Shown here: piece by piece, positions 1,099 through 23,272 of the stretch
Numbering within the stretch: position 1 is the first letter of the stretch
How the letters are laid out: each line of letters opens with the position of its first letter
Translations under genes and position numbers: made by a program
Notes under the pieces: model-generated
Told to the model about the DNA's origin: nothing
The model's database searches: none
What the model saw: only the letters and a program-made list of their open reading frames with translations
NCBI GenBank assembly: GCA_041855385.1
Contig: JBHAEC010000106.1
Coordinates: 30,744-54,743 of the forward strand
DNA length: 24,000 bases
Source of the DNA: Veillonellaceae bacterium
Lineage (GTDB): Bacteria > Bacillota > Negativicutes > Veillonellales > Veillonellaceae
Reading direction: 5' to 3'

Positions 1099-1287
1099 AT
1101 CTTTTTAAAATATTTAAAGCATTAATCTTTTTGAGAATGGAAGGATTGAAATACAATATAATTCAAGTCAGTAAAAATAAGGGATTATATTAATATTAAA
1201 GGTATTGAAAATGAGAATGAAAGAGAGTAATATAGAATTGCCTATAAATAAATAGTGGGATTTTGGGTTAGTAAGGAGGAGAGAAAA

Positions 1288-3474
1288 ATGGGATCTAAGA
1301 AAGCTCTTTTAGGAACAGTGATTATGGTTACTTCGCTTACAAATATCGCATTAAGCGCGGATAATACTCCCGGCAATGGCAATGGCGTAGCTATTGGTAC
1401 ACAAAGTTCTGCTCCTAAAGCAGAGAATGTTGCTATTGGAAAAAATGCCGTTATTAAGTACAGTAATGGTGCCAGCAACGCTACAGGAGACATTGCTATA
1501 GGAAATAAGAGTGAAATAGATAATTATGCCAGCCAGGGAGGGAGCATTGCAATGGGTAGCAATGCAAAAATTGAGAATATGGCCGGTGGAGCGGAAGCAG
1601 CATTTCCTTTTGGTCAAACCAGCTATAGCGGTAACGCTTGGTCCTCTGTACGCTTACCTGCAGACCCGACCAAGGCCTTGGGAAGCATCGCTTTAGGGCA
1701 GAATACCTTCGCGCGTACAGGTAGCACAATGATAGGAACACATAATTATTCCGGTGCTATGGGGGATACAACGGTAGACAGTGCAAATACAAAAGTCTCC
1801 AATTTAAATGTTTATAGTACTACCGTAGGAACAAACAGTAATAGCAACGGTGCGTTTACTACTGTAACAGGTGCCTATTCTATTATTTCGAGCGATTACA
1901 CAGGAGGGCGATTGTCTAACCCTAATAAAAACTTGGGTGCTGTAATCACAGGCTCGCTAAACAGTATTGAATCTATGAATTCCGGTTACTATTCCGGAAT
2001 TGCCAATAGTATTACCGGTGTGGCAAATCGAACTAATAATGCTAACGGTGCACTTATTTACGGTGCAGGAAACAGCATAACGAACTCCATCACTACGATT
2101 ACGGGGCTACCTGCATCAAGCGGCGATTCTGCAAGAGCGTTCCAGGATTCCCTTATGACGGCAATAAAGGTGAATAAATCGGCCGGAGCTACGATGGCTT
2201 TCGGTGGAGGAAATACGGCGGACTGGACATTACGATCAGCTTTGATTGGCGTTAATAATGAACTGAAAGGCGAGAAAGGAAATGAAAGTGTAGAGAATTT
2301 TATCGCCGGATATAACAATAAAGGGACAAAAATTGATGGCACAATGATTATCGGTAACAACCGAAACGTTGAAGACTCTAATAATGCCGTTATCATAGGA
2401 TCGGCTTCCGGGACAACTACTACAACAGCTGCATCTAATGCTGTTATAATTGGCATGGAAGCAAACGCAAGTGTTGAAGGCGGTGTAGCTATCGGTGCAT
2501 TTTCAAAGGCGTCAACCGGCACGAATACGGGAGGCTATGATGTATCCACCGGAAATGCCTCCTATACAGATGGAACAGCAACTTGGAATTCGGGGGCAGC
2601 AGCTGTTTCCGTGGGAGATGCAGCAACGGGAGTAACGAGACAAATAATCAATGTGGCAGCAGGAAAGAATGATACGGATGCGGTCAACGTGGCACAATTA
2701 AAGAGAGCGGTGTCTGCGGCTTCTGCAGGAAGTGCGGATAAGTACGCGGGGGATACGGGAAGTATCACCATTAATCCGGGTAATGTACTAACGGTTATGG
2801 GCGGAGCTACAGAATTAGCAGATGGAAACATTGGTGTTGTTGCAGAGGGAAGCACACTCAATGTTAAGTTGGCCAAAAATATCACGGGATTGGAATCTAT
2901 TACCACAAATACTTTAAATGCTACAACTATTGCTGTTGGAGATACACAAATAACAACCGGAGGGTTATCGATTACTAACGGGCCATCAATTACTAATACG
3001 GGTGTTGATGCGGGAAATAAACAAATAACCAACGTAGCTGCCGGAACAAACTTGAGCGATGCCGTCAACCTCGGTCAATTAAATAGCGTAGGAAATCGTG
3101 CAGAAAAAGTGGGCGCCGGAGCAGCAGCATTGGCGGCGCTACATCCATTGGATTTTGATCCTGAAGATAAGTGGAATTTTGCAGCGGGATATGGCAATTA
3201 TGCAGGAGAGAATGCAGTGGCAGTCGGGGCATTCTATCGTCCTAATGAAGATACTATGTTTAGTCTTTCCGGCGCCATAGGCAATGGGGAAGATATGATT
3301 AATGCAGGAGTAAGCTTTAAATTAGGCAAATCAAGTGGCCTTTCCACATCGCGCGTTGCAATGGCCAAAGAAATTGATAGTTTGCGCAATCAGGTAGAGC
3401 AATTGACTTCTGTTGTTACTCAGCTTTTAAATAAAGAAAAGAGCGAGAGTAATAAAGATATGGAACAGAAATAA
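1288..3474 (+). CDS. trimeric autotransporter adhesin (YadA-like head/neck repeats, YadA anchor, extra C-terminal coiled coil)
   Basis: ATG 1288 is preferred over GTG 1255 because the RBS TAAGGAGG lies at 1272-1279. Signal peptide 'MGSKKALLGTVIMVTSLTNIALSA'. Many 'xxAIGxxA' head repeats. Two neck motifs, 'RQIINVAAGKNDTDAVNVAQLK' and 'KQITNVAAGTNLSDAVNLGQLN'. Anchor 'ALAALHPLDFDPEDKWNFAAGYGNYAGENAVAVGAFYRPNEDTMFSLSGAIGNGEDMINAGVSFKLG'. Confidence 0.9.
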   Translation: MGSKKALLGTVIMVTSLTNIALSADNTPGNGNGVAIGTQSSAPKAENVAIGKNAVIKYSNGASNATGDIAIGNKSEIDNYASQGGSIAMGSNAKIENMAGGAEAAFPFGQTSYSGNAWSSVRLPADPTKALGSIALGQNTFARTGSTMIGTHNYSGAMGDTTVDSANTKVSNLNVYSTTVGTNSNSNGAFTTVTGAYSIISSDYTGGRLSNPNKNLGAVITGSLNSIESMNSGYYSGIANSITGVANRTNNANGALIYGAGNSITNSITTITGLPASSGDSARAFQDSLMTAIKVNKSAGATMAFGGGNTADWTLRSALIGVNNELKGEKGNESVENFIAGYNNKGTKIDGTMIIGNNRNVEDSNNAVIIGSASGTTTTTAASNAVIIGMEANASVEGGVAIGAFSKASTGTNTGGYDVSTGNASYTDGTATWNSGAAAVSVGDAATGVTRQIINVAAGKNDTDAVNVAQLKRAVSAASAGSADKYAGDTGSITINPGNVLTVMGGATELADGNIGVVAEGSTLNVKLAKNITGLESITTNTLNATTIAVGDTQITTGGLSITNGPSITNTGVDAGNKQITNVAAGTNLSDAVNLGQLNSVGNRAEKVGAGAAALAALHPLDFDPEDKWNFAAGYGNYAGENAVAVGAFYRPNEDTMFSLSGAIGNGEDMINAGVSFKLGKSSGLSTSRVAMAKEIDSLRNQVEQLTSVVTQLLNKEKSESNKDMEQK

Positions 3475-4914: not shown

Positions 4915-5144
4915 AAGTCCCCCTGTAAAAATGTATATCATTAGAGTAATAATCAGTATAGTATGGTTATTATACCATAAATTATGCAATGGGATTAAAA
5001 GACGCACACTTTCAAGTTGCTTATTTTTATGCATGAATTTTTATTTATCTAAAGGAAGGAAAAATTCTAATGGAGAGAGAATTAACTTGTATGTATACAG
5101 TGGATAAACATATAGTAGAAAAAGATAAAAATGCATAAATGTAA

Positions 5145-5173
5145 TTGTAAAAAATGTTTTTTTGTTATAGAAT
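5145..5173 (+). promoter_or_regulatory. candidate promoter for the TerC-family gene
   Basis: TTGTAA (5145-5150), 17-nt spacer, TAGAAT (5168-5173). Confidence 0.35.
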
Positions 5174-5251
5174 ATAGATAAATAAAAGCCCAACAGATTC
5201 AAGGGGATCTGCGATGTAAGAACAAAGAGGCCAAGGGAGGGAATCTTCTTT

Positions 5252-5944
5252 ATGGATGAAATCTTAACAATCGCCGGGATGATAAAAATAGCACAGATTA
5301 TGTTTATTGATATCCTGCTGGCGGGAGACAACGCTATCGTCATTGGTATGGCAGCAAGAAAACTACCCATTTACTTGCGTAGAAAGGCAATATTCTGGGG
5401 AACCTTTGGAGCTATCTTTATACGTCTTGTGTTGGCAATCTTGTTTGTAGGGGCTTTAAAGCTAATTCCTTTCTTACATTTGGCCGGTGGTATTCTTTTG
5501 ATGTGGATTGCCATGCACTTGGTTATTAAAGACAAATCAAAAGAAGGACATAATATTGAAGCAAAAGACAGCCTCCGGAGCGCTATCATGACCATCGTTA
5601 TTGCAGACGGCGTTATGGGCATTGATAATGTACTGGGAGTTGTAGCTGCCGCAGAAGGACATATGGCTCTTGTTGTAGCAGGCATGCTTGTGACAGTGCC
5701 CATCATTATTTGGGGTAGCACTTTGTTTGTTAAGTTGATTGACCGATATCCTATTATTGTTTATATCGGTGGTGCCGTACTGGGATGGGTAGCGGGCGAT
5801 ATGATTATTGCCGACGATTTTGTTAATCCTGTATTGGGACCGTATGAGAAGATTTTTTGTGGTATTTGTGTACTTATCGTGTTTGTGGGGGCTAAGCTTA
5901 TCGAAAAGCTCGGAAAGTCCGGTGAAGATCCCGTTAAAGTATAA
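5252..5944 (+). CDS. TerC/YjbE family integral membrane protein
   Basis: 'FIDILLAGDNAIVIGMAA' and the second-half repeat 'IADGVMGIDNVLGVVA' are the duplicated TerC-family DN motif. GGGAGGG RBS. Confidence 0.85.
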   Translation: MDEILTIAGMIKIAQIMFIDILLAGDNAIVIGMAARKLPIYLRRKAIFWGTFGAIFIRLVLAILFVGALKLIPFLHLAGGILLMWIAMHLVIKDKSKEGHNIEAKDSLRSAIMTIVIADGVMGIDNVLGVVAAAEGHMALVVAGMLVTVPIIIWGSTLFVKLIDRYPIIVYIGGAVLGWVAGDMIIADDFVNPVLGPYEKIFCGICVLIVFVGAKLIEKLGKSGEDPVKV

Positions 5945-5993: not shown

Positions 5994-6029
5994 ACCGTGC
6001 ATTATATCTAAATAATGCACGGTTTCTTG
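5994..6029 (+). terminator. intrinsic terminator after the TerC-family gene
   Basis: ACCGTGCATTAT-atctaa-ATAATGCACGGT followed by TTCTTGT. Confidence 0.7.
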
Positions 6030-6151
6030 TAAATAAGGTATAATAGAAAGGCCGAGATGAGGAATAAAAAGCATAGCACATAAACTTCTTATCTTTGGCG
6101 GGGTAACGTCAAAAGGTCATATAATGGCAGAAAATAGCAGAGGTGAAAGAA

Positions 6152-6571
6152 ATGAAATTAGCTTTAATGATTATTGCTCTTGTACTGGTAGGAGCGTTTG
6201 TATTTACCGGCTGTGGACAAGGAAACAAGAAAGAGGGGGAAAATATGCCTAAAATTAATGCTAAAGAGTGGATACTAAGTCCTGAACAGGGAAAGAAAAT
6301 GATGGAAGAAAATAAATCCATTCAATTAATTGATGTTCGTACCGTGGCGGAATATCAAGAAGGCCACATTGCAGGAGCCAAAAACTTCCCCTTAGATCAA
6401 GTAGTAAGCAAAGTAAGTGCGGCATATCCGGATAAAACTACGCCTATAATCGTATATTGTCGATCCGGACGCCGTTCGGAAGAGGCGGCAAAAGAGCTAA
6501 GAAAAGCCGGATATACCACTGTATATGATATGGGCGGTATCATGGCATGGCCTTATGAAATCGTAAAGTAA
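6152..6571 (+). CDS. rhodanese-domain sulfurtransferase, probable lipoprotein
   Basis: ATG 6152 with RBS AGAGGTG 6 nt upstream. Lipobox 'VFTGC'. Rhodanese active-site loop 'YCRSGRRS'. 'LIDVRTVAEYQEGHIAGAKN' motif. Confidence 0.85.
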   Translation: MKLALMIIALVLVGAFVFTGCGQGNKKEGENMPKINAKEWILSPEQGKKMMEENKSIQLIDVRTVAEYQEGHIAGAKNFPLDQVVSKVSAAYPDKTTPIIVYCRSGRRSEEAAKELRKAGYTTVYDMGGIMAWPYEIVK

Positions 6572-6622
6572 TCATGAAAAGAAAGGTCACGGCATCATAG
6601 TGATTAGGATGTGTTTATAGAA

Positions 6623-8032
6623 ATGAGCGCAAAAAATTTTGCCAAGGAAAAGAAAAAAGAAAAGAGCAGTATTCCCGTAACTAAAGATACGATTTATGAA
6701 CTGGACATTACCGGCCTCGGCACAGGTGGGGAAGGCGTAGGTAAGATAGAGGGATTTACCGTCTTTGTGCCCTTTGCTTTGCCGGGAGAGCGAGTAAAAG
6801 CAATCATGGAAACAGTGAAGAAAACCTATGCAAAAGGGCGCCTACTCGCAGTGGTTCGGCCATCAAAAGATAGGACATCGCCCAGATGCCCCGTATACGA
6901 AGAGTGTGGAGGCTGCCAGTTACAACATGTCAGTTACGAGGCCCAATTAAAACTGAAAACACAGATGGTAAAAGACATGGTGGAGCGTATAGGTCAGATC
7001 GATCCGCGTCTTGTAAAGCCTGCGATTGGGCCGAAAGAACCTTGGTATTATCGAAACAAGATGCAAATGCCCGTCAGCCGAGATGAACATGGTATCGTTA
7101 TGGGCTTTTATGAGCGCGGCTCTCATAAGGTAGTGCACTGTCTCAGTTGTGCTATTCAAAAAGAAGGAAATAACCACATTGCACAGGTTTGTCATACCAT
7201 GGGAGAGAAGCTTGGCATTGAGCCCTATAATGAAATTACTCATACCGGTGTATTGCGCCATATTATCGGTCGCATAGGATGTGATGAGTACATGGTCATA
7301 CTCGTGACAGCGACGCCGGTTCTGCCAAATACAGAGGAATGGGTGGAAGGCATTTGTAAAGCCTTACCGAAAGTAACATCTATTATACATAACTATAATC
7401 CTAATAGAACGAATGTGATCTTGGGAGAAAAGACAACCGTACTATGGGGAAAAGAGCAGATAACCGATACCATTGGTAATACTACCTTCTTGCTATCGGC
7501 ACAATCGTTTTTTCAGGTGAATCCGGCTCAAACAAGTGTACTCTATAATCAGGCGCTTAATTATGCAGAATTAACGGGCCGTGAAACCGTTATAGACGCA
7601 TATTGCGGAACGGGAACGATTTCTTTACTCTTGGCACAAAAAGCGAAAAAAGTAATAGGTATTGAAATCGTGGAGCCTGCCATTTTGGATGCCCGAGAAA
7701 ATGCTCGGCGCAATGGAGTCACCAACACGGAGTTTATTGTAGGTGATGCGGCGATAGAAATGCCGAAATTGTTAAAAAAAGGAATACGGCCGGACGTTAT
7801 CGTCTTTGACCCCATTCGAGCCGGCTGTAAAGAAGAGGTGTTAGAGGCTGCCGTATCGATGGAGCCGAAACGCATTGTTTATGTATCCTGTAATCCTGCC
7901 ACGATGGCACGAGATATTCGTATCTTGGAAGAAAGAGGATATAAGACAATAGAAGTGCAGCCGGTGGACATGTTTCCGCAGACAGCGCACGTGGAAGCAA
8001 TAGGAAAACTTGTCAAGATAGACTCCCTATAA
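6623..8032 (+). CDS. rlmD: 23S rRNA (uracil-C5)-methyltransferase, RlmD/RumA family
   Basis: TRAM-like N-terminus. Fe-S cysteines 'CPVYEECGGCQLQH' plus a later Cys. SAM motif 'VIDAYCGTGTISL'. 'FDPIRAGC' and 'YVSCNPATMARD' catalytic motifs. Start is ambiguous (GTG 6611 or ATG 6623). Confidence 0.88.
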   Translation: MSAKNFAKEKKKEKSSIPVTKDTIYELDITGLGTGGEGVGKIEGFTVFVPFALPGERVKAIMETVKKTYAKGRLLAVVRPSKDRTSPRCPVYEECGGCQLQHVSYEAQLKLKTQMVKDMVERIGQIDPRLVKPAIGPKEPWYYRNKMQMPVSRDEHGIVMGFYERGSHKVVHCLSCAIQKEGNNHIAQVCHTMGEKLGIEPYNEITHTGVLRHIIGRIGCDEYMVILVTATPVLPNTEEWVEGICKALPKVTSIIHNYNPNRTNVILGEKTTVLWGKEQITDTIGNTTFLLSAQSFFQVNPAQTSVLYNQALNYAELTGRETVIDAYCGTGTISLLLAQKAKKVIGIEIVEPAILDARENARRNGVTNTEFIVGDAAIEMPKLLKKGIRPDVIVFDPIRAGCKEEVLEAAVSMEPKRIVYVSCNPATMARDIRILEERGYKTIEVQPVDMFPQTAHVEAIGKLVKIDSL

Positions 8033-8041
8033 GCAAATTAA

Positions 8042-8232
8042 AACTATATTTTAGAAAAGTTTGGGCTTAAAGTATCTACTCTGTACATTGCACAAGCTAA
8101 GAAAAAGCATGGTTCAGAAGTTAGGGAACACTATAATATTTCAAAAAATGAGAATCTGAAAGTTTCTCACAATGTCCAATTGAAAAAGAAGATGATATTT
8201 TGGATGCACTGAAGCATTTTAAGATGTTGTAA
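8042..8232 (+). pseudogene. decayed C-terminal extension of an RlmD/RumA-type gene (stop codons plus one frameshift)
   Basis: In the rlmD frame, after TAA-GCA-AAT-TAA, reads 'NYILEKFGLKVSTLYIAQAKKKHGSEVREHYNISKNENLKVSH'. After a 1-nt slip it reads 'QCPIEKEDDILDALKHFKML*'. This resembles the C-terminal tail I recall from clostridial RumA-like proteins. Confidence 0.55.
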
Positions 8233-8258
8233 TATTAAACCAATAGGGGGCATAGACA

Positions 8259-11200
8259 GTGGCTAATATTGAAAGTATTAAACAAAAAATACTACAACTA
8301 GATGCAGGTTCATTTCAAAACCTTTGTGATTCTTATTTATATAAAACTGGATATCCGAGTATAGTATCTCTTGGCGGAGAGGCAGGTACACGAAAGACTA
8401 CTTTAGGTACACCTGATACTTATTTTATTGCATTAAATGGAAAGTATGTTTTTGTTGAATACACAACTCAAAGGACAAAATTATTTGAAAAAATTTGGGA
8501 TGACCTTGAAAAATGTCTTGATACAGCAAAGACAGGTATTCCGCATGACAAAATCTCTGAAATTATTTATTGTCATACTTCATCAAACCTTACACCATTT
8601 CAAGATAGTAAAGTAAAAAAACTATGTGAAGATGTTGGAGTTAAGCTTACAATTATTGGAATTGATAAGCTTGCAGAAGATATATATCTTTTCCATCATA
8701 ATCTTTCACGTGATTTTTTGGGAATATCAATAAGTACGGATCAAATTCAATCATATGATGAATTTATTAATAGTTACAACGCAAATAGAATGGCTGCTCC
8801 ACTTGACACTAAATTTCTATTCAGAGAAAAAGAATTTCAAGATATCATCAATGCTTATACGAAAGTGGATGTTGTTATACTTAGTGGTTCATCAGGTACG
8901 GGGAAAACCCGTTTAGCCTTGCATTATGTAAAAAATCATGCAGATGCTAAGCATGAAATGACTTACTGTGTTCACAGTAATGCATTACCAATATACGAGG
9001 ACTTAAAACTTTTTTTAGATAGACCAGGAGATTATTTTCTTTTTATTGATGATGCCAATCAATTGTCAGGGCTGCAGCATATTATCCGTTACGTTAGGAT
9101 GAAACCAGAGGGATATAATGTAAAAATACTTATTACAGTAAGGGATTATGCACTTCAAAAAGTGATAAACGATGTTCGAGGAATCACTTCTTATGAGATT
9201 TTGAATGTAAATGTATTTTCAGATAACGAGATTAAGGAATTACTTGAAACTTCATTGTGTATTTTGAATCAAGACTATCAAGCACAAATTATAAGAATTG
9301 CAGAAGGAAATGCTCGTATTGCTATACTTGCTGGGAAAGTAGCGTGCAGTTCGAATCGTTTGGAGTCTATTGATGATGTATCACAATTATATGAAGATTA
9401 TTATGGTTCTAGTTTAGAAGATAATCAATTATTTATAGACAAAAATCTGTGTATAACTGCTGGTATAATTGCTTTTCTTGAAGCAATTCATTTAGATTAT
9501 ATTGATGCACTTTTACCAATTTTACAGGGAAAAGGGCTAAATCGAGATAGTTTCATTGAAAATATCCGTGTCCTTCATGAGCAGGAAATTGTCGATATTT
9601 ATAATGATAAAGCTGTTCGTTTTTCTGATCAATGTTTGTCTAATTATTTGTTAAAATATATTTTCTTTGACAAAAAATTACTTAATTTGTCAAAAATGAT
9701 TAAATCTTGCTTTTCAAGCTACAGAGAGAGAACTGTATCTTCTGTTAATACGTTACTTAATATCTTTAGAAATAAAGAGCTTTTAAATTTTGTTGAGAAA
9801 GAAATAAAGTTATTATGGGATGAATTATCAACAGAAAAATCGCCAATCTTCTTTGAATTTGTAAAAGTCTTTTTTCGTATTAATCCTACGGAAACACTTT
9901 TGCTTTTGCAAAATAAAATTGAATCTGAAGAAAGAATGATTTGTGGATGGAGTGATATAGATACTGAAAAGAGAAAAAACTATCAGCATGTAGAAAATGA
10001 TATCATTAAAATTCTTGGTGGATTTGCAAATATGACTGATTTGCCAACCGCTTGTGATTTGTTTTTTCAATATTATCTAAAGCGACCAGATTTATTTATG
10101 GAATTTTATCATGCAGTCAATATATTTTTTGGGATTCATAGGGATGACATACGTTATGATTTTTACACTCAAATAACATTTTTTGAAAAAATAAAAGAAT
10201 ATTCAGATGACTGGAAACAAGAATTTATTGTTAGTTTCTTTTTACAAATAGCAAAAGAATTTTTGAAATTGTATTTTTCACCAGCGGAGGAAGGGCGAAA
10301 AAATACATTAACCATATATCAAATTCCATTAACTATGTCTGAAGGTGTTGAAAAATATCGCAAGTTAATTTGGGAACCGTTAACTTTTTTGAGTGAAATT
10401 GAAAAATATAGAACAAAAGTGAGGGAAATCCTCAGATCTTATGGTGGCACTATCGACGATGTAAGCATTCCTGTTTTACAATTTGATTTAAAATATATTG
10501 AATTGATTTTGAAGTCATATTTTCTGCCAGATAAATTGGTAAATTGTCTTTTGGTGGACGAAATAGTACAAGTTTTTAGTAGAATGAATTGTCCCTGTAA
10601 ATACTTATTTTCTGAATACTTTGAAGAAGAGAGCTTTCAATTATATTGTCTTCTTAAAGGACCAGAATATAAAGAAGTTTGTTATGAAGAACATGAAAAG
10701 CGGAAGCAGCAATCAATTAATCAATATACTTCGAATTGTGATTTACAAATGTTTAAGAAGTTAATTGATGTTTGTAGCAGTATTTCTGAGCTAAATAACC
10801 ATTCATCTTGGGAGGTTGGCAAAGGATTAAATATTGCCTTTGATTCTATTTCCGATAAAAAAGATTTGTACGTTGATGTAATTAAATATTATATCAAAAA
10901 CGATACACCACACAATTTACATCCATATCATATAGTAGACACTCTATTTTCCTTATTATCTGATTCAGAAGTGTATGAAATTATTATTAGTGAAGAATAT
11001 AGTCAGAAAAACGCTTGGACATATGCATATTATCATGAATTACCGCTGGAATTAATTACAGAAAAGCATTTACAAGAGCTTTATGATTTTTTGAGAGATA
11101 CTTCTGATAGATATATTACCTCATCATCAATGCGTGATGTAGATTTTCTTGAGAAATATAATGTAATAGATGAATTAGCATTGATAGAAGGTTGCAAAAT

Positions 11201-11993
11201 TATTTTGGATAAAAAAGAGTATTCCTCCTTTATCGTGAATATTTATTTTGATTTGTTATTTAATTGCCATTGTAATACACCAAAGGAAGTGATTCAAAAA
11301 TTTAATCGTAATTTGGAATTGCTTGAAGAAATATACTATGCTATGTTGTCATACGATGAACATCATGATTATGGCGGACAATTTTTGAAGGAAATATATT
11401 CGGTTAGACCTTCTATATTGGACAAGTATATAGATTATTTAATAAATAGTGACTCTTTTAGCGTCCATCAAAAAAAGCATTGTTGTTTTTTCGATTTGGA
11501 CGATTTTGTAGAAATATATAATAAAATTTTTGAGCAGTTGATAAGAAACCAACGATATTTTACCCCGTTCATACCGGAGTTCTTAGAATCTTTATTATTG
11601 CCAAAGCAAAATGAGAAAAAGTTGTTAGAAAGACAAGATATGTGGATTCGGCAATGTATTCAACGATTCTGCAATGATGAAGCAAAAATGTATTGCCTAT
11701 TTTCAGTTGTGTCAAAATTAGACTTCAAAAGAAAAAAAGAGTATATCTTGCTCTTTCTTGAGAATAATCCGTTGTTTGAAGACTTTGAAAAAATACCATT
11801 AACACCTACTTCTTGGAGTTGGTCAGGTAGTGCAGTACCTATGTATTCAGCTTGGATTGAATTTCTCGAATCATTGTTACCAAACTGTATAGGTTTGAAG
11901 TGGATAAAACATAAAAACTATATTGAAACAAAAATTGGTTATTTAAAAGGGCGAATTGAATCGGAGCAAATAGATGAAATTTTAAGAGGATGA
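8259..11993 (+). CDS. 1,244-aa STAND-like P-loop NTPase with nuclease-like N-terminal domain and long helical C-terminal region (candidate Avs-like defence sensor)
   Basis: GTG start with AGGGGG RBS 9 nt upstream. Walker A 'SGSSGTGKT' (aa 209-217, nt 8883-8909). Walker B 'YFLFIDD' (aa 259-265). 'KILITVRD' (aa 289-296) and 'IAEGNARIAILAG' are NB-ARC/STAND-like. N-terminal 'FQNLCDSYLYKTGY..GTPDTYF..YVFVEYT'. Low-GC composition. Confidence 0.85.
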   Translation: MANIESIKQKILQLDAGSFQNLCDSYLYKTGYPSIVSLGGEAGTRKTTLGTPDTYFIALNGKYVFVEYTTQRTKLFEKIWDDLEKCLDTAKTGIPHDKISEIIYCHTSSNLTPFQDSKVKKLCEDVGVKLTIIGIDKLAEDIYLFHHNLSRDFLGISISTDQIQSYDEFINSYNANRMAAPLDTKFLFREKEFQDIINAYTKVDVVILSGSSGTGKTRLALHYVKNHADAKHEMTYCVHSNALPIYEDLKLFLDRPGDYFLFIDDANQLSGLQHIIRYVRMKPEGYNVKILITVRDYALQKVINDVRGITSYEILNVNVFSDNEIKELLETSLCILNQDYQAQIIRIAEGNARIAILAGKVACSSNRLESIDDVSQLYEDYYGSSLEDNQLFIDKNLCITAGIIAFLEAIHLDYIDALLPILQGKGLNRDSFIENIRVLHEQEIVDIYNDKAVRFSDQCLSNYLLKYIFFDKKLLNLSKMIKSCFSSYRERTVSSVNTLLNIFRNKELLNFVEKEIKLLWDELSTEKSPIFFEFVKVFFRINPTETLLLLQNKIESEERMICGWSDIDTEKRKNYQHVENDIIKILGGFANMTDLPTACDLFFQYYLKRPDLFMEFYHAVNIFFGIHRDDIRYDFYTQITFFEKIKEYSDDWKQEFIVSFFLQIAKEFLKLYFSPAEEGRKNTLTIYQIPLTMSEGVEKYRKLIWEPLTFLSEIEKYRTKVREILRSYGGTIDDVSIPVLQFDLKYIELILKSYFLPDKLVNCLLVDEIVQVFSRMNCPCKYLFSEYFEEESFQLYCLLKGPEYKEVCYEEHEKRKQQSINQYTSNCDLQMFKKLIDVCSSISELNNHSSWEVGKGLNIAFDSISDKKDLYVDVIKYYIKNDTPHNLHPYHIVDTLFSLLSDSEVYEIIISEEYSQKNAWTYAYYHELPLELITEKHLQELYDFLRDTSDRYITSSSMRDVDFLEKYNVIDELALIEGCKIILDKKEYSSFIVNIYFDLLFNCHCNTPKEVIQKFNRNLELLEEIYYAMLSYDEHHDYGGQFLKEIYSVRPSILDKYIDYLINSDSFSVHQKKHCCFFDLDDFVEIYNKIFEQLIRNQRYFTPFIPEFLESLLLPKQNEKKLLERQDMWIRQCIQRFCNDEAKMYCLFSVVSKLDFKRKKEYILLFLENNPLFEDFEKIPLTPTSWSWSGSAVPMYSAWIEFLESLLPNCIGLKWIKHKNYIETKIGYLKGRIESEQIDEILRG

Positions 11994-12312
11994 TTTATAA
12001 ACACAAAAAGACTGTATAAATATAGAAGTAAAACTGTTTGTGAATTGACATTGTATGATGGTTTAACCTACAAAGAAAAACAAATATATCTAAATTTTAT
12101 TTAAGGTATTTCTTTAAAACTTGTAGATGTTGGAGATGATATGAAGACTAGTTTGGACAATTATTAGCACGTCGAAGCAATAGCCTTGATTACAAGAAGC
12201 GGAAAAGGAGAATAGTATGCAGGAGCCACAGATACCCGGTTTATACCGCTTTGGCGTGTCTGAAATGGCGTTGGGAGAGCAGTAGAAGTTGGTTGACGAC
12301 TGAGATTTATTA

Positions 12313-12639: not shown

Positions 12640-12664
12640 TTTTACCTCCTAAAAATAGAAAAAT

Positions 12665-12705
12665 AAAAAGAGCTCACGACAAGAAAACATATCTTATCGT
12701 GAGCT
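12665..12705 (-). promoter_or_regulatory. terminator hairpin inside the SMR 5' leader (attenuator / expression platform of unknown class)
   Basis: On the minus strand: AGCTCACGATAAGA-tatgttt-TCTTGTCGTGAGCT followed by CTTTTTATTTTTCTATTTTT, then the AGGAGG RBS and ATG. It lies between the predicted promoter and the start codon. Confidence 0.55.
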
Positions 12706-12764
12706 TCTCTCAACCTAATGTATTACCATCATGCATGTAAAACCATGCCTTCGATACGCTAATT

Positions 12765-12793
12765 AATATACTATATTTGATTGTTTTGGTCAA
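12765..12793 (-). promoter_or_regulatory. sigma-A type promoter for the SMR gene
   Basis: On the minus strand: TTGACC (12793-12788), 17-nt spacer, TATATT (12770-12765). Confidence 0.55.
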
Positions 12794-12939
12794 GGTCTTG
12801 TTGGTCAGATGCTTCCTTGAATCAATAGGTGATTTTTTATATTACAGAAAGTAGAAGAGAACAATGATGCCTTATCATTTTGTGTAGAAATAGTAGCATT
12901 ATTACTAGAAATATATATCAAAAACAAGGCTATTGTTAT

Positions 12940-12969
12940 AAAAACCACGCAATAATCGGCGTGGTTTTT
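12940..12969. terminator. bidirectional terminator hairpin (downstream of the small minus-strand ORF)
   Basis: AAAAACCACGC-aataatcg-GCGTGGTTTTT. The stem sequence matches the terminator at 1071-1098. Confidence 0.7.
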
Positions 12970-13026
12970 GCGGTTGCGGTTGTAGATTTAATTAATTAAA
13001 ATAAGATAGGAAGTAATTAACCAAAT

Positions 13027-13311
13027 TTATTCCCAAAAATCTTCATCAATTGTGACAACGAATAAAAAAAACACTATAGTTGCTATTAATGCGGATAAAA
13101 TTATAGTTGAAGCTTCAAAAACCGGAAGATCAAACAGTAAAAACATAAACCATTGAAAGAGAAGTAGCAACATTATAAAGCTTAAAAAAATGAAAAACAG
13201 CCAAGGAGAAGTCACTACGAAGCAAACAGTAAGAAATAAAAGTTTTCCTAGGAGCTTAAACAGCATTTTACAAATGGATATTGCAGATAGATTGTGAGAT
13301 CTGTTTAGCAT
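13027..13311 (-). CDS. hypothetical small membrane protein (about 3 TM)
   Basis: ATG 13311 with GAGGGGA RBS 6 nt upstream. 94 aa, very hydrophobic ('LLFLTVCFVVTSPWLFFIFLSFIMLLLLF'), acidic C-terminus. AT-rich. No family recognised. Confidence 0.55.
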   Translation of the reverse strand: MLNRSHNLSAISICKMLFKLLGKLLFLTVCFVVTSPWLFFIFLSFIMLLLLFQWFMFLLFDLPVFEASTIILSALIATIVFFLFVVTIDEDFWE

Positions 13312-13467
13312 AATAGTTCCCCTCACTTCTATATTGCGTAATTAATGTGATTAGTAAATCTATAGATTGAGTATATCATAAAAAAAGATGTAAACAGAAT
13401 AGAGAAAACTGAGAGCAGGTTATAATAGAGTAGAAGTAAACCTAATAAGTATATAAGAAAATAGCAA

Positions 13468-13496
13468 TTGAAATTCTATAGTAAAAGTGGAATAAT
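13468..13496 (+). promoter_or_regulatory. candidate promoter for purC
   Basis: TTGAAA (13468-13473), 17-nt spacer ending in TGG, AATAAT (13491-13496). Confidence 0.35.
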
Positions 13497-13556
13497 AGAC
13501 CTGTACGTTGTGAGAATAGTCCTTTTTGATGGGACGTTATAAAGGAGACAGGAGAC

Positions 13557-14234
13557 ATGGAAAAGATTTACTCAGGTAAGACAAAAGATGTGTATGCGAT
13601 TGATGAAAAGCATGTACTTTTGAAGTTCAAGGATGATGTGACAGGCAAAGATGGAGTGTTTGATCCGGGTGAAAATCAAGTAGGGCTCACGATAGAAGGT
13701 GCCGGACGTTCCGCTGTTCGCATGACGAAGTTTTTCTATGAAAAATTAAATGCTATGGGGCTTAATACGCATTTTGTCAGTGCCGATGTAGAGAAGAATG
13801 AAGCGATTGTAAAGAAGGCATCTCTTTTCGGTAAGGGTGTAGAAGTGATTGTGCGTTATCGTGCTGTAGGCTCTTTCATAAAGAGATATGGCGACTACAT
13901 TGCGTCCGGAAGCGAAATTCCCACCTATGTAGAGGTTACGCTTAAAGATGATGCGAAAGGCGACCCCCTTATTACCAAAGATGCATTGGCTATACTTAAT
14001 ATTATGAGCGCCGAAGAGTATGAAGAGTTGGCAGCATTGGCTAAAAAAATCGGTGATGTGGTAAAAGATGAATTGGCAAAGAAAGGCCTAGACTTGTACG
14101 ACATCAAATTCGAGTTCGGTATGATTGATGGAAAAGTGGCTTTGGTGGATGAAATTTCCGGTGGAAACATGAGAGCTTTCCGCAAGGATGAATATATCCA
14201 GCCCCTTGAATTAGAAAAAATTATGTTGGATTAA
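13557..14234 (+). CDS. purC: phosphoribosylaminoimidazole-succinocarboxamide (SAICAR) synthase
   Basis: 'IYSGKTKDVY', 'LKFKDDVTG', 'VEVIVRYRAVGSF' and 'LVDEISGGNMR' are SAICAR synthetase motifs. AAGGAG RBS. Confidence 0.92.
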   Translation: MEKIYSGKTKDVYAIDEKHVLLKFKDDVTGKDGVFDPGENQVGLTIEGAGRSAVRMTKFFYEKLNAMGLNTHFVSADVEKNEAIVKKASLFGKGVEVIVRYRAVGSFIKRYGDYIASGSEIPTYVEVTLKDDAKGDPLITKDALAILNIMSAEEYEELAALAKKIGDVVKDELAKKGLDLYDIKFEFGMIDGKVALVDEISGGNMRAFRKDEYIQPLELEKIMLD

Positions 14235-14246
14235 CTTATGAAAAGA

Positions 14247-14274
14247 CCCCCACAGCTATGCTTGTGGGGGTTTT
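14247..14274 (+). terminator. intrinsic terminator after purC
   Basis: CCCCCACA-gctatgct-TGTGGGGG followed by TTTT. Confidence 0.8.
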
Positions 14275-14385
14275 ATCAATAATGGACTCCGGAAAAGGGG
14301 GGATACAGCCTTTCCGTTGACACCATTATCAGCAACTTCCGTAGTTGTTATACAGAAATCGGTATATAATCACCGGTATAAATGT

Positions 14386-14898
14386 CTACTTTGTTGGTGG
14401 AACTGCATCGGGATGATTTTGCTTATATGTATCGTTTTGAGCCATTACATTTACCATTACAAGAGGTACATCTCCGGTATTTTCAATGCCGTGTTTTTCT
14501 CCGGGACGACATATGGTCATATCTCCCGTAGCAACAGGGATTTTTTGGCCGGAGGTATCCGTAAATATACCGGACCCGCTTACGATGATATAGGTGTCTT
14601 CGTTAATGGCATGAGCATGATGACCAACAGAGTCGCCGGGGTTCAGTACCAACCATGCCATCTCTTTTACTGCCGATTCAGGTGTTGCCGCATCACGGCG
14701 AAAAGCAAAGTGGCAATGTAAAATGCCCTTTCCGCCGGCTACTTTTTCTCTTTCTACCTGCATCAGTTCGTGGTATTTGTATACCTGCGGCAGGGGGGCT
14801 TTTTCATCAGTTTGAGTTACCGGTATAGAGGCGAATGAGTAAGAAAGAGAGAGTGAAGCATAGCAGCAAAGGGCCATGCACAACAGCTTTGTTTTCAT
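14386..14898 (-). CDS. secreted cupin-domain protein
   Basis: ATG 14898 (GGAGG RBS 7 nt upstream). Signal peptide 'MKTKLLCMALCCYASLSLSYSFA'. Cupin motifs 'GDSVGHHAH..EDTYIIVSGSG' and 'GDMTICRPGEKHGIENTG'. Confidence 0.8.
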   Translation of the reverse strand: MKTKLLCMALCCYASLSLSYSFASIPVTQTDEKAPLPQVYKYHELMQVEREKVAGGKGILHCHFAFRRDAATPESAVKEMAWLVLNPGDSVGHHAHAINEDTYIIVSGSGIFTDTSGQKIPVATGDMTICRPGEKHGIENTGDVPLVMVNVMAQNDTYKQNHPDAVPPTK

Positions 14899-15121
14899 AT
14901 AAAGACCTCCAATCATTAACTACATATAATATTGGTTACAATCTATACTTTTACTCTATCATTGTCCGAAATAAATGTCTACCTGTTATTTCTTTTTTGT
15001 AAAGAAGGATTTCCCGTTCTTTTATGGTACTTATACGGTAAGGATGCAAAATAAAATCTAAAAAATTTAAGCTTAATATCTTGCCGTCTTTATGTATAAG
15101 AGCATTTGGAGGAGGAGTTGC

Positions 15122-15895
15122 ATGAAACAAGATGAAAGAAGACATTATTTATTAGAATATCTTTTACGGGAAAGAAGGGAAGAAGATCGTATTTCCATCC
15201 CTTCAAGTAAAGAAGAAGAGTGGGCGCTACTTAGAGCTCTCATGAATGTACGCCTTCCGGAGCCTGTCAGCAAAGAATTTTTGGAAGTACAAGATGCATA
15301 TTTACAGGAAGAAAAGGAAAAGAGAGGCATTATAAGTCTTGAAACATTGGAAGAAAAAGAACCGCAGATCTATTTGTGGAGAGGCGATATTACAAGGCTT
15401 GCCGTAGATGCAATTGTCAATGCGGCTAATAATAGACTTTTAGGTTGCTTTGTTCCGGGGCATCATTGTATAGATAATGCTATTCATACTTATGCAGGCA
15501 TACAACTGAGATTGGCTTGCCATGAGCTTATGGAAGCACAGGGATACTTGGAACCTACAGGACAGGCCAAGATTACGAAGGCATATAATTTGCCCAGTAA
15601 ATATATCCTTCATACCGTAGGTCCAATTATAACCGGTGTTGTGACAGAGGAGGAAGAACGCTTGTTGGGGGCTTGCTACGAATCGTGCTTGGCCTTAGCA
15701 GATCAACATCAGCTGAATAGCATTGCATTTTGCTCTATTTCGACGGGGGAATTTTGCTTTCCTAATGATAGGGCGGCAAAGATAGCCATAAAGACGGTTA
15801 GAGATTATATAGAGCGCACCAAAACACCTATAGCAGTGGTCTTTAATGTGTTTAAGGAAAAGGATGAGCTGATATATTCGAAGCTATTAGGGTAG
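15122..15895 (+). CDS. macrodomain protein-ADP-ribose hydrolase
   Basis: ATG 15122 behind GGAGGAGGAG. Helical N-terminal extension, then macro motifs 'WRGDITRLAVDAIVNAANNRLLGC', 'ILHTVGPI' and 'FCSISTGEFCFP'. Confidence 0.85.
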   Translation: MKQDERRHYLLEYLLRERREEDRISIPSSKEEEWALLRALMNVRLPEPVSKEFLEVQDAYLQEEKEKRGIISLETLEEKEPQIYLWRGDITRLAVDAIVNAANNRLLGCFVPGHHCIDNAIHTYAGIQLRLACHELMEAQGYLEPTGQAKITKAYNLPSKYILHTVGPIITGVVTEEEERLLGACYESCLALADQHQLNSIAFCSISTGEFCFPNDRAAKIAIKTVRDYIERTKTPIAVVFNVFKEKDELIYSKLLG

Positions 15896-20917: not shown

Positions 20918-21075
20918 GCAAATTCCGAGTTGTTTTTTGATTTGTTATTTGATTATTGGCTATATTTTACGCTTACTGTGGGGATAAATCTATTATAGAA
21001 CGTCAGAAAAGGAACGGACGAGATTGGGTGGAATTGATTGGCGCACAGGATGTATTTGTGAGTAAAGAAAAATTG

Positions 21076-22149
21076 ATGAGGAATGATGGATTAAAAATGT
21101 ACCATGTGGAGATTGAACTGGACAAAATAGTTGAAAATGCAATTTCTGAAGGGGCCAGTGATATTCATTTTGAGCCCAAGGAGAAAGAAATGATAGTGAG
21201 ATACCGGATTGATGGACTTTTGTACAGACGTGTATGCATTGAAAGGGCCTATGTAGATAAAATAATTAATCGTATAAAAATTCTTTCCGGTGTCGATATT
21301 GGAGAAAGACGGGTTCCGCAAGATGGACGATGGAGATGGCGACAGAATCAAAAGGGGGTCGATATGCGCATGTCTACATTACCTACCGTATGGGGAGAGA
21401 AAATTGTACTCCGTCTTTTACCTTCCAATACCGGAGAATTGAGTTTGGCGGAGCTTGGAATGGAGGAACATATTCTAGAAGAGGTAAGGTGTATGCTTGC
21501 TAAGCCGTATGGGATGCTACTTGTGACGGGGCCGACGGGGTCAGGAAAATCTTCTACCTTATATGGATTGTTGCGCGAAATGGACAGAGAAAAGCGTAAT
21601 ATTATCTGTTTGGAAAATCCTGTAGAGCGCGAGATTGAACTGGCCAATCAGGTACAAATTAATGAAAAGATGGGGTTGACATTTTTTAGCGGGTTGAAAG
21701 CGGTGTTAAGACAAGATCCGGATATCATCATGGTGGGAGAAATACGTGATACAGAGACAGCTCAACTGGCTGTTCAGGCAGCGTTGACAGGGCATTTTGT
21801 CCTCTCGTCTCTGCATACGAACAATGCGACCGGTGCCATTGAAAGGCTGGTGGACATGAAGATTGAGCCCTTTCTTCTTAAAGCTACTTTGGTAGGCGTC
21901 GTTGCACAACGACTGGTTAGGCGGAGGTGTTTGCATTGCCAGGGGAGTGCCGGATGCTTTTATTGTAAAGGATGTGGGTATAAAGGTCGTATCGGAATAT
22001 ATGAAATACTTAAAATCCCGAGTAAAAATTGGGATTTAAAAACTGCAGATAAGTATTTACTTTGTACCTTGCGAGAATCGGGAAAACTATTGCTGGAAAA
22101 GGGGATTACAACAAGGGAGGAATTAATGCGTGTCGGAATTTGGGAATAG
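21076..22149 (+). CDS. pilB: GspE/PilB-family type IV pilus assembly ATPase (short form, no N1 domain)
   Basis: 'ASDIHFEP', 'RYRIDGLL', Walker A 'GPTGSGKSST', Walker B 'DPDIIMVGEIRD', His box 'TGHFVLSSLHTN', and a tetra-Cys cluster 'CLHCQGSAGCFYCKGCGYKGRIGIYE'. Start uncertain (21028, 21076 or 21097; the track uses TTG 20956). Confidence 0.85.
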   Translation: MRNDGLKMYHVEIELDKIVENAISEGASDIHFEPKEKEMIVRYRIDGLLYRRVCIERAYVDKIINRIKILSGVDIGERRVPQDGRWRWRQNQKGVDMRMSTLPTVWGEKIVLRLLPSNTGELSLAELGMEEHILEEVRCMLAKPYGMLLVTGPTGSGKSSTLYGLLREMDREKRNIICLENPVEREIELANQVQINEKMGLTFFSGLKAVLRQDPDIIMVGEIRDTETAQLAVQAALTGHFVLSSLHTNNATGAIERLVDMKIEPFLLKATLVGVVAQRLVRRRCLHCQGSAGCFYCKGCGYKGRIGIYEILKIPSKNWDLKTADKYLLCTLRESGKLLLEKGITTREELMRVGIWE

Positions 22150-23272
22150 AATCCGAAGAATTTTAGATAAAGCATCGTCTTTGGGAGCTGTAGACCTACA
22201 TATGGAGGAAAATAAAGATTTGCGTATGCGCATAAAAAACGAATTGGTTGTTTTTCCGGAAGAGCGGATAACGAAGGATGTTTTTGAAGCGTTGTCACAC
22301 TATTGCCAATGGGATTTTGTAAAGGGCGATAAACTAGCAGGGCATGACGAGAGGGAACAGTGGGGCGATTGTTTGCATGAATCTTTGGCCCGTTTTTCAA
22401 AAAAAGAGATTACATCTTTAGCTGATTCTCTCTTGGGAAGGCAGGTCTTTTCAAGAGAGGGCGCATTTACCATGGGAAGAGTCCGCTGTCGTGTTCATAT
22501 GTTTCGGGCACAGAGAAAGCTGTGTTCCGTAGTACGGCTTTTATACTCTCGAAATATGAGCTTGGAAAGGGATTGTCATAAAGATTTATTGCAGCATATA
22601 TGCCACTTGCGAGAAGGACTGGTTATCATTGTAGGTCCTACCGGCTCAGGAAAGAGTCATACTTTGGGATGCTGTATTTCATATATAAATCAGAACTTTT
22701 GTAAGCATATTATTACACTTGAGGATCCGGTGGAAACAATTTTTAAAAGTGATAAATCGTTTATTCGACAACGTCAATTAGGAGAGGATATTCAATCCAT
22801 GGCGGAAGGCCTTAGAGATGCACTGCGAGAGGATCCGGATATTCTTCTTATCGGAGAATTGCGAGATAGGGAAACTCTGGAGGCTGCACTGGAAGCTGCT
22901 GAAACAGGACATTTGGTGTTTGCCACACTACACACACAACGATCTATAACAGCTATAGGGCGAATGATATCTATGTTTCCGGCAGAACGACAAGAAGAGG
23001 TTAGGAATCAACTTTCATTGGTTTTAAAAGCAATTATATGTCAAAGATTGGCCTATATAGAGGATAAGGTACATCCTGTGAGAGATATTTTGCTTAACAC
23101 AAAAGCGGTCAGTAATCTCATAAGGCAGAAGAAGGAAGCACAAATTGTATCTGTACAAGAGACAGCTCCGCACATGCAAACCTTTGAAATGGCCGTGGAA
23201 AAAATGGCGAAGAGTTTCGGACATGAATGGGAGCTGAAATCGGTGGTGGAGGATTTGGATGAAATATTATAA
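22130..23272 (+). CDS. pilT: PilT-like type IV pilus retraction ATPase (with N-domain insertion)
   Basis: GTG 22130 overlaps the pilB end by 20 nt. 'GAVDLHM', Walker A 'GPTGSGKSHT', 'ITLEDPVE', 'REDPDILLIGELRD', 'TGHLVFATLHT', and no tetra-Cys motif, as in PilT/PilU. Confidence 0.85.
   Translation: MSEFGNRIRRILDKASSLGAVDLHMEENKDLRMRIKNELVVFPEERITKDVFEALSHYCQWDFVKGDKLAGHDEREQWGDCLHESLARFSKKEITSLADSLLGRQVFSREGAFTMGRVRCRVHMFRAQRKLCSVVRLLYSRNMSLERDCHKDLLQHICHLREGLVIIVGPTGSGKSHTLGCCISYINQNFCKHIITLEDPVETIFKSDKSFIRQRQLGEDIQSMAEGLRDALREDPDILLIGELRDRETLEAALEAAETGHLVFATLHTQRSITAIGRMISMFPAERQEEVRNQLSLVLKAIICQRLAYIEDKVHPVRDILLNTKAVSNLIRQKKEAQIVSVQETAPHMQTFEMAVEKMAKSFGHEWELKSVVEDLDEIL

Follow-up and report, generated by a model that had tools for sequence, protein, structure and literature searches.

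In a 24,000-nucleotide stretch of the genome of a Veillonellaceae bacterium of the class Negativicutes (assembly GCA_041855385.1, contig JBHAEC010000106.1, positions 30,744 to 54,743 of the forward strand, hereafter the window), a single gene at 8259..11993 on the plus strand encodes a 1,244-residue protein with a nucleoside triphosphatase (NTPase) module of the STAND type. Judging from its layout, its conservation and its genomic surroundings, this STAND gene is probably a single-polypeptide antiviral sensor resembling those of the Avs (AVAST) systems, borne on a cassette devoid of integrase in the 3' end of rumA, i.e., the gene of an RNA methyltransferase. What is new here, and also more unusual than the protein, is the cassette, namely a single-gene, integrase-less element at the rumA 3' end, occurring as the same unit across phyla.

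Domain Architecture and Family of the STAND Protein

The open reading frame (ORF) starts with a GTG codon, ends with a TGA codon and runs uninterrupted over 1,244 codons plus the stop. A first-pass annotation of this DNA, made from its letters only, had described it as one ORF combining a nuclease-like region, a STAND NTPase and a helical arm, and all the motifs it quoted lie at the residues it gave, namely SGSSGTGKT (residues 209-217), YFLFIDD (259-265), KILITVRD (289-296) and IAEGNARIAILAG (347-359), as well as, in the N-terminal domain, FQNLCDSYLYKTGY (19-32), GTPDTYF (50-56) and YVFVEYT (63-69). Since 1,244 codons stay open in DNA of 29% G+C content (GC) and full-length colinear homologues are found down to 26% identity, the ORF is not due to chance.

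The proposed layout holds, as seen from the Pfam nSTAND3 match, from AlphaFold2 (AF2) models with a predicted local distance difference test (pLDDT) of 85 and 90, and from fold matches of both parts to Avs4/Avs3. From the N-terminus, the protein comprises (i) a domain of PD-(D/E)xK, i.e., restriction-endonuclease-like, fold (residues 1-165; 8259..8753, +), based on AF2, Foldseek and conservation, (ii) a P-loop nucleotide-binding domain (residues ~186-320; 8814..9218, +), based on Pfam, conservation and AF2 strands, (iii) a helical domain followed by a winged helix (residues ~321-460; 9219..9638, +), based on AF2 secondary structure and invariant columns, and (iv) an all-alpha C-terminal solenoid (residues ~461-1244; 9639..11990, +), based on AF2 and Foldseek and presumed to be the sensor arm. 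Residues 189-312 match Pfam nSTAND3 (PF20720) with 32.8 bits for a cut-off of 27.2 (E 6.7e-8), and homologues also carry the precomputed PF20720 assignment; matches to nSTAND5, AAA_16, NB-ARC and NACHT were all below their thresholds. A scan of the protein against NCBIfam returned nothing meaningful, and sequence searches of the PDB with the single protein, the family profile or a profile of the N-terminal domain only gave P-loop matches or noise, e.g., haemagglutinin.

Conservation was read from alignments of 53-126 diverse family members. In the Walker A motif (G210-K216/T217), G210, G213, G215 and K216 are invariant or nearly so, as are D264 and D265 of Walker B, R295 of the TVRD strand, G350, N351 and R353 of a "GNxR" helix, which the earlier annotation had likened to GLPL, and E443 and Q458 of the winged helix, the latter within an SDQ motif that seems to sit at the position of an MHD-like motif. 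The Walker A, Walker B, R295 and GNxR residues are kept across homologues of 26-99% identity, and the arm has conserved residues of its own, i.e., R701, W920, Y1026, D1037 and H1218. The AF2 model of residues 181-1244 (pLDDT 89.7, predicted template modelling score 0.74, from a 58-sequence alignment) exhibits a P-loop alpha/beta domain, a helical domain and a winged helix, and is helical from residue ~460 onwards, with two very short beta strands near residues 676-686 as the only non-helical part of the arm. Searched with Foldseek against the PDB, this model gave as best match Avs4 bound to portal (8dgf, E 1.7e-7) and next Avs3 bound to terminase (8dgc, E 3.8e-6), followed by solenoids of the karyopherin/HEAT type and then the PAB2304 STAND ATPase, ORC/Cdc6, MalT, EfAvs5 (9jap) and the AVAST5 filament (9nc9). 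As such, the general tripartite layout of Avs proteins, i.e., effector, STAND NTPase and long helical sensor, is found by AF2 and Foldseek in the STAND protein.

A search among 1.84 billion representatives (clusters at 50% identity) returned 1,825 relatives at E<=1e-3, 967 of which at E<=1e-30, and about 970 representative clusters have the same layout within 1,240-1,260 residues. Nearly all of the 150 top-ranking relatives measure 1,230-1,260 residues, with alignments that span the full length even at 26% identity; because they match in length and are colinear throughout, the three-part protein is a conserved unit. Close homologues (63-93% identity) are patchily distributed across phyla, namely in Vagococcus, Streptococcus oralis/mitis/cristatus, Lactobacillus iners, Enterococcus cecorum, Veillonella, Aedoeadaptatus, many Lachnospiraceae and Clostridia, and Streptobacillus of the phylum Fusobacteriota. 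More distant members lie on plasmids of Bacillus cereus and Leptospira, and none of the phage records carries the STAND gene, which is neutral as regards its function. By eye, the protein had not been assigned to a named family; the family does have a name, however, since databases label it "nSTAND3 domain-containing NTPase" and related NTPase domains figure among the seeds of a 2026 survey of defence STAND proteins.

Disrupted copies occur in several forms. A homopolymer of seven A at codons 119-121 (A7; 8615..8621, +) is eight A long (A8) in relatives, where it causes a frameshift splitting the gene into a 123-residue N-terminal fragment and a 1,091-residue remainder (5541-5912 and 6001-9276 of locus L045). 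This A8 form was seen in several samples and in at least seven protein clusters; further copies are interrupted at different A/T runs, and premature stops are present in 4 of 24 genome loci. Such changes could be slippage-driven on/off switching or simple decay.

A Single-Gene Cassette in the 3' End of rumA

The gene adjoining the STAND gene upstream (6611..8032, +) encodes a rumA/RlmCD-type RNA (uracil-5) methyltransferase, recognised by the Pfam domains TRAM and tRNA_U5-meth_tr, and is the target of the insertion. Near its 3' end, over the codons ..A-H-V-E-A-I.., lies the left direct repeat GCACGTGGAAGCAATAG (7987..8003, +), after which the last methyltransferase codons (8004-8032, ...GKLVKIDSL*) derive from the insert (…HVEAIGKLVKIDSL*). 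The repeat is followed by (i) a left cassette arm (8004..8258, +), which is the truncated and frameshifted remnant of an ORF called here the tail and holds the ribosome-binding site AGGGGG (8245-8250), 8 nt 5' of the GTG start, (ii) the STAND gene as sole cargo, (iii) a right arm (11994..12166, +), 81-97% conserved in other hosts and ending in ...TTGGACAAT(G/T)AT(G/T)AGCA(A/C)GT(C/G)GA, which reads …LDNDE-Q-VE in relatives, and (iv) the right direct repeat GCACGTCGAAGCAATAG (12167..12183, +), where the displaced original 3' end of the methyltransferase gene, as read from the sequence (HVEAIALITRSGKGE*; 12168..12215, +), begins. The 17-bp direct repeat is present twice in the window at a spacing of 4,180 bp, against none expected in shuffled sequences. 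On the plus strand of the left arm (8004..8258), no sigma-70-like site was found. Within the 4,180-bp insert, no substantial coding sequence exists besides the STAND gene, the other ORF of at least 80 residues being antisense inside the latter.

GC is 0.28-0.32 across the ORF (about 29%) versus 0.38-0.45 in both flanks (about 42%). The compositionally foreign island reported earlier is thus real, and it is now delimited as the insert between the two repeats; this precisely bounded nature had been overlooked. Equally, the gene had been called solitary, which is true for the window, where neither a recombinase nor any recognised defence gene besides the STAND gene is present and the neighbours are ordinary housekeeping chromosomal genes.

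The same junctions recur elsewhere. In nearly every locus (20+ loci), the STAND gene lies ~300 bp after a TRAM/U5 methyltransferase gene, the methyltransferase being 30-61% identical to that of the window (61% for that of a Veillonella genome) versus 80-93% for the STAND gene across those hosts. At the DNA level, one segment of ~4.2 kb, from the H-V-E codons near the methyltransferase C-terminus to ~180 bp past the STAND stop codon, is 92-94% identical and occupies the same site in Streptococcus, Veillonella, Vagococcus, Lactobacillus iners and Streptobacillus. The cassette boundaries are common to about 12 hosts, with host-specific rumA ends directly after the cassette in other loci as in the window, and equivalent repeats measure 23 bp both in a Veillonella genome, with 1 mismatch, and in Vagococcus, with 4 mismatches. 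Six contigs of the window's own species (L046-L051) are identical or nearly so to the window and terminate in the right arm or within the STAND gene itself, a pattern suggestive of breaks in assembly across the AT-rich insert.

These comparisons bear directly on a housekeeping or regulatory role, in which the protein would be a STAND/AAA+ ATPase similar to MalT or ORC and functionally coupled to the adjacent rRNA methyltransferase. Such a role could be read from the position of the gene directly after the methyltransferase in many genomes and from MalT and ORC/Cdc6 among the fold matches; however, host-specific methyltransferases at 30-61% identity next to a STAND gene 80-93% identical across phyla, junctions inside the methyltransferase gene with direct repeats, and a foreign GC all contradict it. 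Moreover, Pfam revealed no DNA-binding output domain, other defence systems can sit between both genes, and core-genome synteny with vertical inheritance was not seen, the homologues residing in variable islands. The housekeeping role is therefore highly improbable.

In streptococci, integrative conjugative elements with a single serine integrase target rumA, generate direct repeats of 2-21 bp and change the C-terminus of RumA (Ambroset et al., 2016, PMC4701971). The cassette shares with these elements and their decayed or cis-mobilisable derivatives the insertion within rumA, the replaced RumA C-terminal end and the short direct repeats (17 bp versus the 2-21 bp reported); it differs from them in lacking an integrase, a relaxase and any conjugation gene, in being only 4.2 kb long with one cargo gene, and in occurring in several phyla. 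Neither in the cassette nor among its neighbours in the window was a recombinase of any kind found, in particular no serine integrase in the cassette itself. Because it has no integrase and sits in rumA, a known target of serine integrases, the cassette is probably decayed or mobilised in trans, and the most economical reading would be that of an integrative unit, decayed or mobilised in trans, which forms a tandem array with other defence cassettes at rumA. A literature search for a defence hotspot at rumA returned nothing relevant. The cassette offers a concrete case of a single immunity gene reaching the same chromosomal site in distant hosts without a recombinase of its own.

Defence Islands around Relatives of the STAND Gene

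The genomic neighbourhoods of six relatives were examined, which is a small sample and not a statistical enrichment. PADLOC confirmed known or candidate defence genes in five of them, i.e., E. cecorum, Enterocloster, Frisingicoccus, Diplocloster and Paenibacillus. The E. cecorum island carries SIR2-HerA, a GmrSD-like enzyme, Mrr and GIY-YIG; that of Enterocloster carries Hachiman, a DndB-like gene, RhuM and a SAVED nuclease; that of Frisingicoccus carries RhuM, KilA-N and an HD dGTPase; and that of Diplocloster carries a 1,136-residue protein, RhuM and KilA-N. In Paenibacillus timonensis, a member with 42% identity lies after smpB, between AbiL, Mrr and McrBC-like genes, and in one metagenome the STAND gene stands at the end of a small prophage remnant. 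The neighbourhoods cover two independent hotspots, after rumA and after smpB, and the initial suggestion of a defence or conflict gene finds support, within this small sample, in homologues lying in PADLOC-confirmed defence islands at both.

The same neighbourhoods are informative about another possibility, namely that the protein serves the mobile element itself, as a weapon against competitors for the rumA site or as an addiction module stabilising the cassette. The gene is always found with the cassette ends, often as sole cargo, it occupies the target of rumA-specific integrative elements and no phage trigger is known for it. Yet the 42%-identity member after smpB, among AbiL, Mrr and McrBC-like genes, has no rumA cassette, and other members reside on Bacillus and Leptospira plasmids; since members exist at the smpB hotspot and on plasmids, the family is not tied to a rumA element. 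Likewise, frameshifted copies frequently persist in place, which argues against addiction. A role restricted to the mobile element is thus improbable, albeit less so than a housekeeping one.

Several other genes recur around the relatives. A RhuM-family gene (PADLOC candidate PDC-S05) adjoins the STAND gene in four contexts, upstream in two and downstream in two, and is absent from the window; the copies lie at 13776-14792 in locus L001, 14620-15651 in L009 (Enterocloster), 8802-9833 in L020 (Diplocloster agilis) and 4077-5120 in L045, and may represent a frequent companion cassette. In Diplocloster agilis, the 1,136-residue protein (L020, 5379-8789, +), encoded between the methyltransferase tail and RhuM, has no Pfam or PADLOC match and is a candidate defence gene. 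Unannotated proteins of 270-277 residues, likewise without PADLOC match, are encoded directly upstream of the STAND gene in E. cecorum (L005, 8739-9572) and Enterocloster (L009, 8488-9300), and in Enterocloster the gene overlaps the end of a DndB/DpdB-like gene.

The N-Terminal Domain and a Proposed Mode of Action

The AF2 model of residues 1-180 (pLDDT 85) displays, in order, two helices, three strands, a helix, a strand, a helix and a strand, with a core topology alpha-beta-beta-beta-alpha-beta as in PD-(D/E)xK nucleases. The first seven Foldseek matches in the PDB are all PD-(D/E)xK nucleases, at E of only 1.5e-3 to 2e-2, the best being EcoT38I (E 1.5e-3), followed by chain 8dgf_B of Avs4 (E 3.9e-3, template modelling score 0.58 on the query); further matches include Nt.BspD6I, NucS/EndoMS, FokI and Card1/Can2. 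Across the family, G39, G50, P52, D53, K78, D82 and C86 are invariant or nearly so, D53, K78 and D82 being 100% invariant down to 26% identity, and Q20 and K46 are ~95% conserved. In the model, G50-x-P52-D53 stands at the start of strand 2 and E67 in strand 3, whereas K78 and D82 lie one turn apart on the next helix. The domain had at first been called Mrr-type, a label that has to be dropped in favour of the PD-(D/E)xK fold alone: Pfam Mrr_cat (PF04471) does not match residues 1-175 even at E<=10, hhalign of the domain profile against two Mrr_cat proteins from related islands indicates no relation (probability <1%), and a PDB search with the same profile gave no match. The sole Pfam match of the domain at E<=10, of residues 50-74 to the bunyavirus L-protein endonuclease (E 0.035), fits the PD...E motif; being below threshold, it was not used.

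Several results weigh against an Avs-like nuclease sensor on a mobile cassette. As regards the effector, the fold matches of the N-terminal domain are marginal, the best having E of 1.5e-3 to 4e-3, and because none reaches E<=1e-3 the result assigns a fold but no family. The absence of the canonical motif lysine, already remarked from the window protein (T69), extends to the whole family, where the position is T, G or S. E67, which had been put forward as a catalytic residue, is kept in 85 of 126 diverse members and is mostly M, A or V in the remainder, so that with D53, K78 and D82 invariant instead, E67A would be a poor choice of mutant. Because the lysine is absent and E67 varies, nuclease activity would need a relocated active site, i.e., D53/K78/D82. 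As regards the Avs likeness, PADLOC v2 (PADLOC-DB v2.0.0, AVAST models included) gave zero families at E<=1 for the STAND protein, a PDB profile search at E<=1 gave no sequence link to Avs3, Avs4 or Avs5 (8dgf being absent), and a literature search found no experiment on any member of this STAND family. As regards the cassette, no empty rumA site exists among the 22 contigs carrying the downstream SMR gene, all of which carry the insert or break within it, and neither an excised form nor a cognate integrase of the cassette was found.

From the results on the effector follows an alternative in which the protein remains a defence STAND and its N-terminal domain is a DNA-binding, oligomerisation or signalling module, with another output, e.g., host-factor recruitment or DNA occlusion. 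The lysine missing from every member, the loss of E67 in about a third of them, the marginal Foldseek E-values and the lack of any Pfam, PDB-sequence or hhalign link to Mrr_cat all suit it. Nevertheless, an invariant D53 within the PD motif, invariant K78 and D82, and K46 and Q20 at ~95% befit an active site better than a scaffold, and the top fold matches are active nucleases. Moreover, relocation of catalytic residues, also onto a neighbouring helix, is established for the PD-(D/E)xK superfamily. A non-nuclease output is accordingly rather unlikely, though a more serious contender than a role in the mobile element, and D53/K78/D82 probably form a relocated active site, as the pattern of invariant residues suggests, in which K78 and D82 may substitute for the motif residues. 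The effector may thus be a PD-(D/E)xK nuclease of relocated active site.

Under the preferred reading of an Avs-like antiviral sensor, the mode of action could be as follows. Following the example of Avs3 and Avs4, recognition of a phage-derived ligand, most likely a protein, would fall to the helical C-terminal solenoid; ligand binding would release autoinhibition and let the nSTAND3 NTPase oligomerise in an NTP-dependent manner; oligomerisation would in turn bring the PD-(D/E)xK-fold N-terminal domains together, leading to DNA cutting and abortion of the infection. As for the gene's arrival, the cassette would have been inserted at the H-V-E codons near the rumA 3' end, probably as a decayed or trans-mobilised integrative element.

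Relation to Known Avs Systems

With Avs4 (AVAST type 4; EcAvs4, 8dgf), the STAND protein shares the organisation as a single polypeptide with an effector of restriction-endonuclease fold, a STAND NTPase and a long helical sensor, and in the PDB Avs4 ranks first by fold for residues 181-1244 and second, behind EcoT38I, for the N-terminal domain. The likeness is nonetheless at fold level only, with no sequence similarity detectable by PADLOC (0) or by the PDB profile search, and differs in length (~1,540 residues for Avs4 versus 1,244 here), in the NTPase, which is here of Pfam nSTAND3, and in the effector, which here has no motif lysine. The NTPase of Avs5 corresponds to Pfam nSTAND3, according to a preprint on Avs5. 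With Avs5 (AVAST type 5, SIR2-STAND; EfAvs5 9jap, AVAST5 filament 9nc9), which is among the fold matches, the protein has in common the nSTAND3-type NTPase and the helical C-terminal sensor; in contrast, its effector has a PD-(D/E)xK and not a SIR2 fold, without SIR2 match in Pfam, and the AVAST models of PADLOC remain silent. The nearest structural relatives are Avs4, for effector fold and layout, and Avs5, for NTPase subtype, and the protein is a member of neither. It does belong to the nSTAND3 clade (PF20720) of STAND NTPases from conflict systems.

The survey of Lee et al. (2026, PMC13581612) comprises a 589-clade tree and 656 seeds and describes 198 defence-associated STAND clades and at least 90 sensor families, the families tested being mostly from Enterobacteriaceae. 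Of these seeds, WP_090001116.1 and WP_147556136.1 align to residues 187-364 with 33-34% identity (E about 1e-25), their NTPase starting at the same residue number, and seed NTPase domains are 33-42% identical to members of the present family; the accessible part of the supplementary tables holds no direct match to accessions of the family. If the function were confirmed, the family would be a large one of Avs-type sensors, with ~1,000 clusters at 50% identity undetected by PADLOC v2.0.0, and frequently found in Bacillota of the gut and mouth, among them Streptococcus mitis/oralis, Enterococcus cecorum and Lactobacillus iners.

The Tail ORF and Possible Cassette Stacking at rumA

The methyltransferase of most hosts continues in frame into the left arm, gaining a tail of ~85 residues (...YKQIQNYVLEKFGFKVSTLYIAQVKKKHG...LDALKHFKML*), whose sequence pattern is …ATYKQIQNYVLEKFGFKVSTLYIAQVKKKHG…EKEEAILDALKHFKML; in the window, the tail (8036-8232, +) is truncated and frameshifted. 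Copies of the tail ORF lie at 9663-9977 in L030, at 17729-17899 in L001 and at 5007-5337, 9837-9959 and 13932-14278 in L020, and tail copies also bound other cassettes: in Frisingicoccus one follows the HD gene, and in Diplocloster the STAND gene is flanked by the tail on either side. Used as a query, the tail retrieved 1,159 small ORFs in which it is joined to a 3' fragment of rumA. Among them, P0333 has a different upstream sequence ending in "…LDNDEYVE" joined to the tail, which mirrors the "…LDNDEQVE" right end of the STAND cassette. A second match, to "DNDKWVE" in L030, falls at the end of a 295-residue ORF and was judged to be a chance one.

An origin of the tail as the exchanged 3' end of a serine integrase gene, an exchange known from the literature on rumA elements, was considered and rejected, its closest 120 relatives being ORFs of 81-150 residues without recombinase domains and the tail itself always following "...HVETxVLLSK". 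Because these closest relatives consist of a rumA 3' fragment plus tail, the tail is read as a rumA-derived extension carried by cassettes. The tail is also found as a small ORF beside a rumA 3' remnant in Enterococcus multiresistance plasmids, in the spw/lsa(E)/lnu(B) region, and in the Anaerococcus plasmid pAPRE01.

A wider proposal is possible and put forward only tentatively: the rumA 3' end would be a cassette-exchange platform for immunity genes and, separately, the effector would work with the relocated active site D53/K78/D82. On such a platform, defence cassettes of one or a few genes would each start with a copy of the rumA 3' end plus the ~85-residue tail and end with "...LDNDExVE", and their insertion, stacking and exchange would be the work of a recombinase acting in trans, as with integrons, and would spread the 4.2-kb Avs-like cassette over Bacillota (Bacilli, Clostridia, Negativicutes, Tissierellia) and Fusobacteriota. 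The rumA 3' end is as such a place to look for more defence genes in Gram-positive and Negativicutes genomes.

Other Features of the Window

Upstream of the cassette, Pfam identifies genes for a sigma-70 factor, a YadA-type trimeric autotransporter adhesin (1255-3474, +), MatE, TerC and a rhodanese, and then the adjoining TRAM/U5 RNA methyltransferase. Both the adhesin and the 61% identity of the methyltransferase to that of a Veillonella genome point to a host among the Negativicutes. Downstream follow an SMR pump, PurC, a cupin, a macro-domain protein (15092-15895, +), permeases, Mrp/ParA and a pair of T2SSE secretion/pilus ATPases (20956-23272, +). A further low-GC stretch (0.31-0.35) extends over 12640-13550, 3' of the SMR gene, and includes on the minus strand a 99-residue ORF (13027-13326) without Pfam match, which is kept as a 94-residue gene in the twin contig (GCA_041789115.1).

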